Shown: piece after piece, positions 2,156-15,765 of the stretch
Layout: each line of letters begins with the position of its first letter
How positions within the stretch are numbered: position 1 is the stretch's first letter
NCBI GenBank assembly: GCA_046536775.1
Contig: JAWDMD010000009.1
Location: 1-18,447 of the forward strand
Source of the DNA: Candidatus Nanopusillus sp.
Lineage (GTDB): Archaea; Nanobdellota; Nanobdellia; Nanobdellales; Nanobdellaceae
Direction of reading: 5' to 3'
Length of the DNA stretch: 18,447 nt
Made by a program: the position numbers and the translations under genes
The notes under the pieces: generated by a model
What the model was told of the DNA's origin: nothing
The model's database searches: none
The model's input: only the letters and a program-made list of their open reading frames with translations

Positions 2156-3871
2156 ATGTTTAAAAATGTATCACTAGATCTTTTTACTATGAGAGAAAGC
2201 AATTTAGATAAGAATTCTAATTTTTCTGAATGGTATAACAACATAGTAAGAATTTCTAAGATTGTTGATGATAGATATTCTGTAAAAGGAATGCCTGTTT
2301 ATTATTCAAACGGATATTTCGCAATTAGAAAGATATTAAATATATTAGAAGGTGAATTAGAAAAAGAAGGTTTTGAACCATATTGGTTTCCAGTACTAAT
2401 TCCATATGATGTATTTAAAAAGGAAAGCGAACATATAAGGGGTTTTGAATCCGAGGTATTTTATGTTACTCCATCAAAACCTATAGAAGAAGAAAAAGAA
2501 ATAAAATATGTATTAAGACCAACATCAGAAACAGAAATGTATTATATGTTTTCTTTATGGATAAAATCTTACAGAGACTTACCTATGTTAACTTATATGA
2601 CAAATACAGTATATAGATATGAAACAAAAGCAACAAAACCATTAATTAGGGGAAGAGAACTTTTATGGAATGAAGCGCATACTGTACACAAGGATTTGGA
2701 TGATTCAGAAAGAATGATAAAAAAATCTATGGAAATATATTCAAAAGTGTTTTGGGATCATTTATCAATACCACATATATGGGTAAAGAGACCAGATTGG
2801 GATAAATTTGCTGGAGCAGATTATACTTTAGCTGCAGATACAATATTACCTGATGGTAGATTTTTACAAATTGGAACCACCCATTTATTGGGAAGAAATT
2901 TCTCTAAAGCATTTAATATTGTTTTTGAAGATGAACATCCATTTATAAAAATAGATAAAAATAAATTTGAGGCATTTAATGAAGATAATTATAGATATGA
3001 AATAGAAATTATTGAAAATAAAATAAAAATAAGATTATATAACAATAAAGAATTAATTAAATCTTATGAAGGAAATATTGAATTTAATGGAGAAATATCT
3101 GAAGATAATAAAGATTTAATAAATAAAATAAATAATATAATTAAAAATGAATTTAATGAAAATAAATTGGTTAATAAAAAATTCGCTTGGCAAACATCTT
3201 TTGGAATGTCTATGAGAACATTAAGTGCAGTAATTTCAATACATGGAGATGATAGGGGTCTAATATTGCCTTTTGAAATATCTAATATTCAGATAATAAT
3301 TATCCCAATATACTACTCAGAAAATGAAAAAAACAAAATATTAGAATATTGTGAGAACGTATATGATTTATTAAAGGAAAAATATAGGGTAAGAATTGAT
3401 AAAGATGAAACAAAAAGTCCTGGATGGAAATTTAATCAATATGAATTAATAGGAGTACCATTTAGAATAGCTATTGGTAAAAAAGAATTGGAAAAAAATA
3501 CAGTTACAATATCTGTGAGGCAATATAACAATAAAGCAAAAGATTATGAGGTCAAATTAGAAAATTTATTAAATGAATTAAATAGATTAATTATTGAATA
3601 TGATAAGGAACTAAAGGAAAGGGCAAGAAAATATTTTGAGAATAAAATATTAAAAATAGATAATATAAAAGATTTAGAAAATAATTTGGATAAAAATGTA
3701 GCATTTAAAGTTCCTTTCTGTATGGAAGAAGAATGTGCAAAGAATATTAAAGAAAAATACTCACTTAATGTAGGGGGAACAGATATTATACCAGAAGATG
3801 CAAAAGATAAAAAATGTATATTTTGTAATAAAAATGCAAAGTATTATGTATATGTAGGAAAAACTTATTAA
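2156..3871 (+). CDS. proS: Prolyl-tRNA synthetase, archaeal/eukaryotic type, with a lineage-specific ~80-aa insertion
   Basis: 571-aa ORF. It carries class II ProRS signatures (FSEWYNNIV..RYSVKG, LRPTSETEMY, RGRELLWNEAHT, LQIGTTHLLGRNFSKAF, WQTSFGMSMR), a C-terminal Cys-rich domain (CMEEEC...CIFC) and the terminal Tyr typical of archaeal-type ProRS. The start could instead be the ATG at 2189 (M12). Confidence 0.93.
   Translation: MFKNVSLDLFTMRESNLDKNSNFSEWYNNIVRISKIVDDRYSVKGMPVYYSNGYFAIRKILNILEGELEKEGFEPYWFPVLIPYDVFKKESEHIRGFESEVFYVTPSKPIEEEKEIKYVLRPTSETEMYYMFSLWIKSYRDLPMLTYMTNTVYRYETKATKPLIRGRELLWNEAHTVHKDLDDSERMIKKSMEIYSKVFWDHLSIPHIWVKRPDWDKFAGADYTLAADTILPDGRFLQIGTTHLLGRNFSKAFNIVFEDEHPFIKIDKNKFEAFNEDNYRYEIEIIENKIKIRLYNNKELIKSYEGNIEFNGEISEDNKDLINKINNIIKNEFNENKLVNKKFAWQTSFGMSMRTLSAVISIHGDDRGLILPFEISNIQIIIIPIYYSENEKNKILEYCENVYDLLKEKYRVRIDKDETKSPGWKFNQYELIGVPFRIAIGKKELEKNTVTISVRQYNNKAKDYEVKLENLLNELNRLIIEYDKELKERARKYFENKILKIDNIKDLENNLDKNVAFKVPFCMEEECAKNIKEKYSLNVGGTDIIPEDAKDKKCIFCNKNAKYYVYVGKTY
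3859..3863 (-). terminator. Possible oligo-U terminator for the minus-strand structured RNA
   Basis: A T5 run on the minus strand lies 10-14 nt downstream of the RNA's closing helix. It sits inside the last codons of proS on the other strand. The AT-rich background makes this weak evidence. Confidence 0.3.
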
Positions 3872-3872
3872 T

Positions 3873-4102
3873 GTGGCCGTAGGCTGCTTTTAGTATATAT
3901 TCTTCTAAGCGGACAGGCCTTTTACCACCAGGTCATATTTCTCAAGGTGCATATATCCTCTCCAAGTTTACCCAGAGTTACCTCCAGGTATTAACTCTTC
4001 ATCTTCATCGAACATATGTCCGTGATTTCTTATTATGTAGCCAAGGGTTTCCCCTTCCGATTCCTCGGTGGTTTATCGGTAAGCAGACCTTCCTACGGCC
4101 AC
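3873..4102 (-). ncRNA. Unclassified structured RNA (~230 nt) with some RNase P RNA-like core motifs; identity unresolved
   Basis: A GC-enriched island with no ORF. An 11-bp terminal helix pairs GUGGCCGUAGG (4102-4092) with CCUACGGCCAC (3883-3873). A second helix pairs CUGCUU with AAGCAG. On the minus strand two hairpins close with GNRA tetraloops (AAGGG-GAAA-CCCUU at 4043-4055; CCUGGAG-GUAA-CUCUGGG at 3971-3988); on the plus strand these loops would be UUUC/UUAC. A TTTATATA box is centred ~26 nt upstream of the first G, and an oligo-U run lies downstream. Confidence 0.7.
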
Positions 4103-4104
4103 TC

Positions 4105-4112
4105 TTTTATAT
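4105..4112 (+). promoter_or_regulatory. TATA-like box (TTTTATAT) for the plus-strand cluster starting at 4135
   Basis: The box is centred ~26 nt upstream of the ATG at 4135, which implies a leaderless mRNA. It is arranged divergently to the RNA promoter. Confidence 0.45.
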
Positions 4113-4124
4113 GTTTCTTCTAAC

Positions 4125-4132
4125 TATATAAA
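4125..4132 (-). promoter_or_regulatory. TATA box (TTTATATA on the minus strand) for the structured RNA
   Basis: This is a consensus archaeal TATA octamer. Its centre is ~26-27 nt upstream of position 4102, the first base of the terminal helix. Confidence 0.6.
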
Positions 4133-4134
4133 TT

Positions 4135-4293
4135 ATGCCCGATCAAATGCCCCTATTTACATACATGGGATTATATAAGTTTGGAAAGGAAAAGTCAAAG
4201 ATAAAATTAAACAGAAATAAAATAATAATATTTATAATTATTTTCGCGGCTTTAGTATATATTGCAAATATTTATATATCATGTCTAATTTAG
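4135..4293 (+). CDS. Putative 52-aa micro-protein with a C-terminal transmembrane segment
   Basis: My own translation: MPDQMPLFTYMGLYKFGKEKSKIKLNRNKIIIFIIIFAALVYIANIYISCLI*. It is below the ORF-track size cut-off. It has a TATA box at leaderless distance and overlaps the next ORF's start by 13 nt. Confidence 0.35.
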   Translation: MPDQMPLFTYMGLYKFGKEKSKIKLNRNKIIIFIIIFAALVYIANIYISCLI

Positions 4294-4733
4294 AAGAAGA
4301 TTTAGAATATAATAGAAGATATAAAGAAGTTTTACATATATTTAATGTTTCATTGAAAAATAATAAAGGATTAGAAACTGTTAAAAGCTTTATAAAATCA
4401 GTTATTGAATATTATGATTATACAATTGAATTATATTTTAAGAAACTATACGAAAATAAAATTATTGATGAAATTCCAGATAGTCCAATTAAGAGATATA
4501 AAAAGATGATTGAAATTACAAAAGATAAAGAACTTGAAGAATCATTAAAGTATTATAAACTATTAAAACTTGCTTTAAATTCCGATTCAGGAATAATGAA
4601 TGAATATAGAAAAAGTATGGTTATAAAATTTAAGACAGTGGGTGGAGAAGAATTTGAAATAAATATAAAAACTCTAAAAGACATTGCAGAATCTGTTAAA
4701 AAATTTTCTACAATTATTAGTAAATATATATAA
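4281..4733 (+). CDS. Hypothetical 150-aa, predicted all-helical protein, translationally coupled to the MinD-like ATPase
   Basis: The ORF's stop overlaps the next start (TAATG at 4731-4735). I recognise no family. Confidence 0.6.
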   Translation: MSNLEEDLEYNRRYKEVLHIFNVSLKNNKGLETVKSFIKSVIEYYDYTIELYFKKLYENKIIDEIPDSPIKRYKKMIEITKDKELEESLKYYKLLKLALNSDSGIMNEYRKSMVIKFKTVGGEEFEINIKTLKDIAESVKKFSTIISKYI

Positions 4734-5488
4734 TGGCAAAGGTATATACAATATCTTCTGGAAAAGGTGGAGTGGGAAAAACATTTTTTTCTATAAACTT
4801 ATCAAGGGTCCTCTCATTATTAAATTTTAAGACATTATTAATTGATTTTAACCTAAGTACACCAAATGTATCGATAAATCTTGGCTTAGATAATGAAAAT
4901 AACAATATACATAAATTTTTAAGGGATGAAATTGATATAAACAATTGTATAAAAGAATATAAAGAAAATTTTTATATAATTCCTGGAAGTTTAGATATAA
5001 AGGACTTAATATATATTTCTACAGAAAAATTACATAATGGAATAATGAAGATATATGATGATTTTGATTATATCATTATAGATTCTGCTGCCGGGATTGG
5101 TAAAGAAGCTATAGAGGCATTGAAAGCTGCTGAAGAAGTTATAATAATAACAAATTATGAAAAATCCGCAATGTTTGATTCTTATAGAGTTTCGAAAGTA
5201 TTAGATAACTTAGATATAAAAACTATGGGAATTGTTTTAAATAAGATAAAGAAGGATATAAATTATATAAACGCTGAAAAATTTTTTAAAAAGAAAATAA
5301 TAGGAATTGTTCATTATGATGAAAATGTACAAATTTCTATGGACAATGGTATACCTTTAATAGATTATAATATAAATTCCATAGCCTCTAAGGATATAAT
5401 AAAAATTGCAGAAAAAATAAGTGGAAAGGAATTAAATATTAGAAATAGTTTTATATATAATATATTAAAAATATTTAAATGGAAATAG
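4733..5488 (+). CDS. minD: MinD/ParA-family P-loop ATPase
   Basis: Deviant Walker A motif SGKGGVGKT at the N-terminus, Walker B-like IIIDSAAG, and an overall length (251 aa) and layout typical of archaeal MinD-like proteins. Confidence 0.85.
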   Translation: MAKVYTISSGKGGVGKTFFSINLSRVLSLLNFKTLLIDFNLSTPNVSINLGLDNENNNIHKFLRDEIDINNCIKEYKENFYIIPGSLDIKDLIYISTEKLHNGIMKIYDDFDYIIIDSAAGIGKEAIEALKAAEEVIIITNYEKSAMFDSYRVSKVLDNLDIKTMGIVLNKIKKDINYINAEKFFKKKIIGIVHYDENVQISMDNGIPLIDYNINSIASKDIIKIAEKISGKELNIRNSFIYNILKIFKWK

Positions 5489-5751
5489 ATTTTGAATTAG
5501 ATAAAATATTTGAAACATTGGATAGAAAAAAATATAAGAAAATATTATTACAATTTCCTGATGGATTAAAACCATATTCAAAAGAAATATATGATAAAAT
5601 AAAGGAAAAATATAAAGATATTGAAATATATATTTGGTTTGGATCTGATTTTGGCGGATGTGATATACCAATATATTTAGATAAATATGGATTTGATTTG
5701 ATAATCCATTTTGGTCATTCAAAATTTTATAAATTAAAGTTAGATGAATAA
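5479..5751 (+). CDS. dph2: Diphthamide synthesis protein Dph2, N-terminal ~90 aa only (half of a split gene, or a truncated remnant)
   Basis: KKILLQFPDGLKPY...FGGCDI...DLIIHFGHS matches the N-terminal domain of archaeal Dph2 (compare P. horikoshii RVLIQSPEGLR...YGACD...ALIHLGHS), including the first Fe-S cysteine. Full-length Dph2 is ~330-340 aa. This ORF stops after 90 aa and an unrelated gene follows. Confidence 0.75.
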   Translation: MEIDFELDKIFETLDRKKYKKILLQFPDGLKPYSKEIYDKIKEKYKDIEIYIWFGSDFGGCDIPIYLDKYGFDLIIHFGHSKFYKLKLDE

Positions 5752-14682: not shown

Positions 14683-14757
14683 TGCCCCCACCGGGATTTG
14701 AACCCGGGTCTCGGGGATGAGGACCCCGTATCCTAGACCAGACTAGACGATAGGGGC
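14683..14757 (-). tRNA. tRNA-Glu (anticodon CUC) with a non-canonical C at position 33; no encoded CCA
   Basis: The minus strand reads GCCCCUA-UC-GUCU-AGUCUGGUCUA-GGAU-A-CGGGG-UCCUCAU-CCCCG-AGAC-CCGGG-UUCAAAU-CCCGG-UGGGGGC-A. UCGUCUAG and the 4-nt variable loop AGAC are tRNA-Glu hallmarks. Confidence 0.85.
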
Positions 14758-15041
14758 TATGGGTTATTTAATATATATTCAGAAGTAGGAGTTATAACTA
14801 TTATATTTGTTCCATTATCATAGCATATAATATTTTCTTCTAAACAAATGTTATAATATGTTTGATTTATAGTAAAAGAATAATTTGGATATAATAATAA
14901 TTTAATATAGAAATCCTCTGCTATATATTTACCAATATTTGGTTGATAATAAAAATTATTTTGTAGACTTGAAATAAAGTATAACGTCATAAATAATATT
15001 AAGATTAGATATAATAGAATAAATTGAGATCTCATTTCCAA
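14757..15041 (-). CDS. Small N-terminally anchored secreted protein (94 aa), pilin-like candidate
   Basis: MEMRSQ is followed by about 20 hydrophobic residues. There are 3 N-x-S/T sequons and 2 Cys. Third gene of an overlapping three-gene set. Confidence 0.6.
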   Translation of the reverse strand: MEMRSQFILLYLILILFMTLYFISSLQNNFYYQPNIGKYIAEDFYIKLLLYPNYSFTINQTYYNICLEENIICYDNGTNIIVITPTSEYILNNP

Positions 15042-15376
15042 TATACATCTACATAATCTACTGAGCCATTAATAATATAAAAAGTTTCTATACCTTGTTC
15101 AGATTCATTTAAATTTATATTATTAAATACAACCTGTCCATTTATTTCAACATAATAGTATGGTAAAATATTTGTAACAATTTGATATAAACTATTATTT
15201 AGTTGTTGAGTATTATTTAGATACATATAATTTATTGATATTAGTGATGCATATAGATCTTCCTTATTGTATCCTCTAATATAGAAATTACTATAATATG
15301 TTGAAGTTAAAATAAAAAATAAAACAACTATTACAACTCCCAATTCAATAAATATTGATATACTAAAGGATCTCAT
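15032..15376 (-). CDS. Small N-terminally anchored secreted protein (114 aa), pilin-like candidate
   Basis: MRS-FSISIFIELGVVIVVLFFIL gives a short charged N-terminus, R-S, then a hydrophobic helix. There are 4 N-x-S/T sequons. It overlaps both neighbouring genes. Confidence 0.6.
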   Translation of the reverse strand: MRSFSISIFIELGVVIVVLFFILTSTYYSNFYIRGYNKEDLYASLISINYMYLNNTQQLNNSLYQIVTNILPYYYVEINGQVVFNNINLNESEQGIETFYIINGSVDYVDVYWK

Positions 15377-15765
15377 TGAACTAATACACTAACCAAAAAT
15401 AATGAGCCATCATAATAACAAACTCTATTAAATTCTATATAATTTTGCATGTTTGTTATATTATCGTTGCTAAATATATACTCCTGACTAGTATTACTTA
15501 AATTTTTATATATTATTTCATATGGAAAACCTGCTAAATTATCCATTATATTTGGATCAAAATTATTTGATGTCAGGTTACAAATATCACTAGTATATTG
15601 TTCTGTAATTTCTTTAATTAAAACTCTTCCATTCATAAATTGATTATATATAATTTGATACTTTTCATTAATATTATAAATATAAGAAACTTTCTCCATT
15701 AATAATAAGGTAATAAAAAATATTACTAAGACAATTACAAATAATTCAAAAAACCTATCTAACAT
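15373..15765 (-). CDS. Small N-terminally anchored secreted protein (130 aa), pilin-like candidate
   Basis: MLDRFFELFVIVLVIFFITLLL is an N-terminal hydrophobic helix. There are 4 N-x-S/T sequons and 2 Cys. A TATA box (minus strand, ~15787-15797) sits at leaderless distance from the ATG. Confidence 0.6.
   Translation of the reverse strand: MLDRFFELFVIVLVIFFITLLLMEKVSYIYNINEKYQIIYNQFMNGRVLIKEITEQYTSDICNLTSNNFDPNIMDNLAGFPYEIIYKNLSNTSQEYIFSNDNITNMQNYIEFNRVCYYDGSLFLVSVLVQ

Follow-up and report, generated by a model that had tools for sequence, protein, structure and literature searches.

The window analysed here, an 18,447-nucleotide stretch of very AT-rich archaeal DNA, carries a truncated 23S rRNA gene, proS, three tRNA genes and scattered ribosomal-protein genes (Table 1). 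Homologues of its ProRS place the host in the Nanopusillaceae (Nanoarchaeota), the best matches being hot-spring metagenome proteins (87-95% identity), followed by 'Nanopusillaceae archaeon' (~72%) and Nanoclepta (55%). The 23S rRNA gene is solitary in the window and at loci L001-L003 and L006, with T2SSE/T2SSF (pilus/archaellum-type ATPase genes) on one side and proS on the other, and neither 16S nor 5S rRNA genes were detected in the fetched flanks around it at these same loci. Between proS, which ends at 3871, and the next ORF, which starts at 4135 and belongs to a divergent operon, the GC content is 0.39-0.47 (over ~3850-4150) compared with 0.17-0.31 in the flanks, and no ORF of at least 50 amino acids overlaps 3873-4102. 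An earlier prediction made from the letters of the window had described this GC-enriched, ORF-free island correctly. Its minus strand folds at -78.2 kcal/mol (z = -5.5 against shuffles; plus strand, z = -3.5).

On sequence evidence, the minus strand of 3873-4102 is almost certainly the gene for the RNA subunit of RNase P, which trims tRNA 5' ends, in this hot-spring nanoarchaeon of the Nanopusillaceae. In E-value mode, positions 3869-4106 of that strand match RF00373 (archaeal RNase P RNA) over model positions 1-288 with 65.2 bits (E = 6e-18), in line with the original prediction's guess of an RNase P RNA that is highly reduced and has no P3 hairpin. The match appears in this mode only, Rfam at its gathering thresholds giving no match at the locus; the curated gathering threshold for RF00373, 84 bits, is an operational cut-off and not a biological feature. 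The window copy falls below that cut-off because the positions of P2, P3 and P16/17 are deleted: its alignment omits model positions 12-34 (the P2 5' strand and P3) and the six-base P2 3' strand, and collapses the 37-nt P15-P17 insert to 1 nt. Strain-level substitutions relative to Nst1 bring its score down to 65 bits. Orthologues range overall from 63.9 to 91.3 bits; four syntenic copies exceed the cut-off (L002, 86.6; L003, 85.5; L006, 91.3; L011, 86.1 bits), these being the ones that align end to end, and four copies miss it (Nst1, 71.0; N. acidilobi, 68.2; Nanobdella, 63.9 bits; and the window copy). The RNA is a structural variant within the RF00373 family, one that has neither P2 nor P3. 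The minus strand was assigned as the RNA strand because G-U cells outnumber A-C cells in the orthologue alignment (86 versus 10). As a side observation, the RNase P RNAs of cultured or type organisms (N. acidilobi, CP010514, L014; Nanobdella, AP019769, L019; Nst1, L021) lie at 64-71 bits and thus under 84, and in these three genomes the gene would probably be passed over by annotation pipelines that apply the threshold.

Contigs with ProRS homologues have the same gene order, with a gene-free gap of ~264 nt after proS and an orthologous RNA in each gap; at L011 the RNA no longer lies beside proS and is still head to head with the downstream operon. A search pattern of 26 bases from the invariant 3' part of the RNA recovered it in 14 species-level genomes, including N. 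acidilobi, Nanobdella aerobiophila, Nst1 and strain YN1. A looser pattern with two anchors, run on the metagenome collection, yielded 21 more copies in metagenome contigs and one chance match (L031), and no relatives outside the Nanopusillaceae came from that search. RNase P RNA was absent at the proS loci of Nanoclepta (L005) and a marine relative (L009). Once duplicates were removed, 32 distinct sequences entered the alignment, sharing 66-94% identity with the window copy. The Nst1 orthologue (contig APJZ01000002; L001/L021) is 92.9% identical to the window copy and has the same flanking genes.

A fold model, written from the Rfam alignment and inspection of variants and then mapped to window coordinates (Table 1), places 97.4% of the cells of the 32 sequences in standard pairs, compared with 34-43% when partners are slid by one to three columns. 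Compensatory changes, in which both sides of a pair have changed, occur in 41 of 65 pairs, and values this high are not attained in any of 500 shuffles. They are found in every helix but P10 and P15, which are 2 bp each and invariant, so that covariation is uninformative for these two. Helices P1, P4, P5, P7-P12 and a mini P15 are present and P2, P3, P6, P16 and P17 are absent, the P2 3' strand and model positions 12-34 being deleted in all orthologues. Because P2 is gone, P4 is merely nested between P1 and P5, and the RNA has no pseudoknot. The canonical P4 made of CR-I and CR-V, with its bulged U, is present (eight pairs, 98.8% of cells paired, four of the eight pairs compensatory), as are P10/11 with the J11/12 and J12/11 T-loop module, and P12. 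All five conserved regions, CR-I to CR-V, align in canonical order and are invariant or nearly so; GGAA.GUC within CR-I does not vary among the 32 sequences, and the P9 loop is a GNRA tetraloop in every orthologue. Around the minimal P15, for which the family form is GG-N4-5-CC, there is no L15, P16, P17 or P6. RNAalifold, blind to the fold model, arrives at P1, a P4 of identical register, P8, P9, P10/11 and the whole of P12, to which it adds two further covarying pairs. Its GGYGG/CCGCU hairpin in place of P5/P7 was rejected: a single cell of that hairpin is compensated and three are broken, compared with six compensated pairs for P5/P7. A scan for extra covarying column pairs beyond those of the model turned up nothing but noise at polymorphic transition sites. 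P12 contains a possible L7Ae-type K-turn, GAUGAAGAUGAA (3998-4009) opposite GGAGA (3959-3963), suggested by the Rfam alignment and the invariant AUGA and GGA only.

Table 1 Features of the locus and its surroundings (window positions; RNA elements written as minus-strand RNA).
Feature	Position	Strand	Description
23S rRNA gene	1-2068	minus	Truncated
proS	2156-3871		
U5 run	3859-3863	minus	10 nt after P1; antisense to last proS codons; candidate termination signal
RNase P RNA gene (almost certain)	3873-4102	minus	Bounds are first to last P1 base; ~230 nt
P1 5' strand	4095-4102	minus	GUGGCCGU; pairs with 3873-3880; 8 bp; 5/9 modelled pairs compensatory; RNAalifold
P1 3' strand	3873-3880	minus	ACGGCCAC; covariation, RNAalifold
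J1/4		minus	4 nt (AGGA), between P1 and P4
CR-I	4083-4094	minus	AGGAAGGUCUGC; aligned to consensus GAGGAAAgUCCcC; directly after P1, no P2/P3 between
P4 5' strand	4082-4090	minus	AGG-U-CUGCU, bulged U4087
P4 3' strand	3881-3888	minus	AGCAGCCU; part of CR-V; RNAalifold agrees on P4
P5 5' strand	4078-4081	minus	UACC; pairs with 3923-3926; 100% of cells paired, 2/4 pairs compensatory
P5 3' strand	3923-3926	minus	GGUA
P7 3' strand	3927-3930	minus	UGGU; pairs with 4069-4072; 4/4 pairs compensatory, 99.2% of cells paired
P8 hairpin	4057-4068	minus	CCGA-GGAA-UCGG; Rfam alignment, covariation, RNAalifold
P9 hairpin	4043-4056	minus	GAAA tetraloop; 4/5 pairs compensatory
P10 and P11 5' strands	4034-4042	minus	P11, 3/4 pairs compensatory
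CR-II (J11/12)	4022-4033	minus	AUAAGAAAUCAC; aligned to consensus ACAGAAACGAcA
P12	3946-4021	minus	Four stacked sub-helices, GUAA tetraloop at 3978-3981; 17/23 pairs compensatory
CR-III (J12/11)	3938-3945	minus	UUGAGAAA
P11 and P10 3' strands	3931-3937	minus	Rfam alignment, covariation
J5/15 linker	3920-3922	minus	AAA; ACA in most orthologues; last two A invariant
Minimal P15 hairpin	3911-3919	minus	GG-CCUGU-CC; both pairs invariant
CR-IV, 4-nt linker and start of CR-V	3889-3910	minus	GCUUAGAAGAAU-AUAU-ACUAAA; P2 3' strand (six model positions) deleted
CR-V	3881-3894	minus	ACUAAAAGCAGCCU
TATA-like box, mirror image	4105-4112	plus	TTTTATAT; 26 nt upstream of ATG 4135 of the 52-aa ORF; putative function
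Archaeal TATA box for the RNA	4125-4132	minus	TTTATATA; centre ~26 nt upstream of G4102
52-aa ORF	4135-4293	plus	Hydrophobic C-terminus; weak archaeal Sec61-beta match (NCBIfam NF002318)
150-aa protein gene	4281-4733	plus	Nanopusillaceae only, 18 homologues
90-aa ORF	5479-5751	plus	Match to the Dph2 (diphthamide-synthesis) profile, confined to its first 58 positions of 302

The original prediction had drawn a different fold, with an 11-bp terminal helix, a 6-bp helix beyond it and two crossing helices, ACCACC/GGUGGU and GAGGAAUCGGA/UCCGCUUA, likened to the P2/P4 pseudoknot. We give this fold practically no chance of being right. Its pairings can be drawn in the window sequence, but those of the pseudoknot do not covary among the related loci that support the RNase P fold, and on each measure 436-491 of 500 shuffles do as well as the alternative pairings taken together, whereas the competing P4, P5, P7 and P8 pairings are compensated. 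ACCACC/GGUGGU proved to be P7 and P5 in the wrong register, one position being unpaired in 22 of 32 orthologues, and the U/C position of the other helix is unpaired in 31 of 32. Its two strands, which had been read as CR-I (GAGGAAUCGGA) and CR-V (UCCGCUUA), are the P8 hairpin and the 3' side of P15 plus CR-IV, respectively, and the real CR-I and CR-V lie elsewhere (Table 1). Of the terminal helix, the outer 8 bp are P1, but the inner CCU (3881-3883) belongs to P4, because 3882 covaries with 4089 (G-C, A-U, G-U) and not with 4093. Five of the six pairs of the 6-bp helix form the lower part of P4, an identity that had been missed together with the bulged U. The ACAGAA element, reported as missing, is present as invariant ACUAAA at 3889-3894. 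Both GNRA loops noted on the minus strand alone are where they were said to be (GAAA, 4048-4051; GUAA, 3978-3981), and a third, GGAA at 4061-4064, had been overlooked.

The stretch AGAAnnAUAUAUACUAAA between P15 and P4 (entered as window 3877-3893 in alignment A2) is invariant in every distinct orthologue of the family, including the most divergent one, L011, at 66% identity overall; its last twelve bases were unconstrained in the second search pattern. Conservation this strong exceeds what would be required of a plain linker standing in for the P2 3' strand.

An own promoter for the minus-strand RNA, as originally predicted, is supported by the TTTATATA box, which keeps its position in nearly all of 27 distinct upstream flanks and lies a few nucleotides further upstream in L006 and L011. 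A mirror-image box faces the opposite way, and the 32 nt that separate the RNA from the divergent 52-aa ORF have the appearance of a compact promoter for both directions, from which the ORF would be transcribed as a leaderless mRNA. The bidirectional arrangement (4103-4137) is conserved across the family, including L011, where proS no longer adjoins. The U5 run that had been noted downstream does exist, but it is weak evidence for a terminator because it lies across the final proS codons and has no counterpart in L002, L003 and L011. A scan for sigma-70 promoters and intrinsic terminators was set aside as irrelevant to an archaeon.

Neither the RNA nor its lack of P2 and P3 is new, contrary to what the original prediction implied. 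An RNase P RNA and three protein subunits were reported for Nst1, one of the terrestrial Nanoarchaeota, in 2013, the short RNA being read as 'partial degradation' (Podar 2013, PMC3655853). A later study listed Rpp21, Rpp29, Rpp30 and L7Ae in Nst1 but no Pop5, and guessed at a remodelled catalytic domain (Samanta 2016, PMC4919917). In March 2026, P3 and P2 were described as deleted 'within Nanoarchaeales (Nanopusillaceae)' (PNAS, PMC12974513), the supplement modelling the Nanobsidianus stetteri RNA, which 'lack[s] both helices P3 and P2'. What is added here is a helix-by-helix coordinate map, covariation from 32 orthologues, the sub-threshold Rfam scores and the compact bidirectional promoter. 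The case is of interest as a cellular, non-organellar RNase P RNA without helices that are usually counted in the universal minimal core. P1-P4 and P10/11 are what is usually taken as the 'conserved minimal core' among RNase P RNAs (PMC2858038), and the missing P2/P3 are to that extent a counterpoint to the RNase P reading; loss of both is otherwise known only from yeast mitochondrial RNAs (PMC3790967). With P2 and P3 absent, the pseudoknot and the platform on which Pop5 and Rpp30 dock are lost.

The RNAs of Nst1 and other Nanopusillaceae (PMC3655853, PMC12974513) are products of the same gene and likewise have no P2/P3; the window copy differs from that of Nst1 by strain-level substitutions only, several of them compensatory, such as A-U for G-C in P7. 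Type M RNAs (Methanococcales, Archaeoglobus; M. jannaschii cryo-EM structure, PMC6565675) resemble it in having P15 as a simple hairpin, no P6, P16, P17 or L15, a 3-nt J5/15 linker, a P12 with a K-turn region and dependence on several proteins. Unlike it, they have P2/P3, the Pop5/Rpp30 platform, and no P8; membership in type M was rejected, P8 being present and covarying in the window RNA and P2/P3 absent. Type T RNAs (also type P; Thermoproteaceae, RF02357) are similarly strongly reduced (~200 nt), with RNA loss paired with protein loss (Rpp21 in type T), but they drop the specificity domain and keep P1-P4, whereas the window RNA keeps the specificity domain and has part of the catalytic-domain scaffold deleted. 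Membership in type T was also rejected, P7-P12, CR-II and CR-III all being present. Budding-yeast mitochondrial RNAs (Rpm1) share the absence of P2/P3 and the retention of P1, P4 (CR-I, CR-V) and often CR-IV; in contrast to the window RNA, they are organellar, very A/U-rich, devoid of specificity-domain elements and dependent on the 105-kDa Rpm2 protein.

Transcription would start from the RNA's own TATA box, at or just before G4102, and give a product of ~230 nt. Homology and covariation show that P1 runs directly into CR-I/P4 and that P1, P4 and P5 make up a single continuous, nested stack. An entire specificity domain (P7-P12, CR-II, CR-III) branches off at P5/P7, and P4 is closed by the 3-nt J5/15, the tiny P15 hairpin and the fused CR-IV/CR-V strand. 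Because P1, P4 and P5 stack coaxially in bacterial RNase P structures, this stack should survive the removal of P2/P3. If solved RNase P structures are a guide, the core of P4, CR-I, CR-IV and CR-V would bind the metal ions for catalysis, gauging of the acceptor and T arms of the pre-tRNA would fall to the CR-II/CR-III T-loops together with the J5/15 adenosine, and the enzyme would then remove the 5' leader. J5/15 occupies the position of the 'A anchor' and may share its role, by analogy with the P5-P15 linker of the M. jannaschii structure (Wan 2019, PMC6565675).

The lineage with this reduction is sister to Nanoarchaeum equitans, the one organism known to manage without RNase P (PMC3655853), and two further readings build on that neighbourhood. 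One is that the locus holds a non-functional relic of an RNase P RNA gene, in decay and en route to the complete loss seen in N. equitans. The 'partial degradation' reading of Podar 2013 (PMC3655853), the disappearance of P2, P3, P6, P16 and P17, and the failure to find Pop5 in Nst1 (PMC4919917) speak for decay, but we consider it extremely unlikely because a relic would not be expected to preserve 97.4% pairing and 41 compensated pairs among sequences with just 66-94% identity to the window copy, nor to retain five invariant conserved regions and a conserved promoter. The other is that the RNA is functional and derived from RNase P but has a main job other than removal of tRNA 5' leaders, for example where tRNAs are leaderless as in N. 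equitans. That this sister lineage does without the enzyme makes such a change conceivable, and in this very AT-rich DNA the TATA-to-tRNA spacing within the window is ambiguous; the TATA box of tRNA-Ala lies ~3 nt too far upstream for a leaderless start, which is weak evidence against. The tRNA-measuring and catalytic core itself (CR-II/CR-III T-loops, J5/15 adenosine, P4) is conserved, and we assign a changed job hardly any probability. A working RNase P RNA that acts on pre-tRNA leaders is the reading we retain.

For such a working RNase P, the protein complement bears on how the loss of P2/P3 might be accommodated. In the M. jannaschii structure, the P2/P3 junction carries Pop5, and the dimer is held together by contacts between Rpp30 and P2-P3 (PMC6565675). 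Because the P2/P3 junction is the seat of Pop5 there, the absence of Pop5 in Nst1 is consistent with the loss of P2/P3, and by the same analogy the deletion would fit the remodelling guessed at by Samanta 2016 (PMC4919917). Within the window, no ORF matched an RNase P protein family. With Pop5 and its P2/P3 seat both gone, the Nanopusillaceae holoenzyme might have been rewired: it could be a monomer instead of a (Pop5-Rpp30)2-bridged dimer, and a lineage-specific protein could take over from Pop5 in holding CR-IV. We regard this scenario as very unlikely. A candidate for such a subunit could be the Nanopusillaceae-only 150-aa protein, whose operon shares the 32-nt bidirectional promoter with the RNA, a linkage that is kept at L011 where that with proS is not.

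Several observations concern the neighbouring genes in their own right. The 150-aa protein has an invariant EVLHIxNVSLKNNKGLE motif and a confident AlphaFold model (pLDDT 88.6, pTM 0.84), its sole full-length resemblance being a weak one to HEPN-type HepT toxins (TM 0.56, E = 0.73). The idea that it is a divergent Pop5 found no support, the model having no Pop5-like fold and its best PDB match not being significant (E = 0.29). The 52-aa ORF upstream of it matches NF002318 with E = 4e-4 and 20 bits against a cut-off of 55, and is called as a gene in most related loci. Further along, on the minus strand at 14757-15765 and directly upstream of tRNA-Glu, lie three consecutive overlapping ORFs (130, 114 and 94 aa), for which Pfam and NCBIfam gave no match. 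The 90-aa ORF at 5479-5751 is consistent with the split Dph2 gene given for Nst1 (Podar 2013, PMC3655853).
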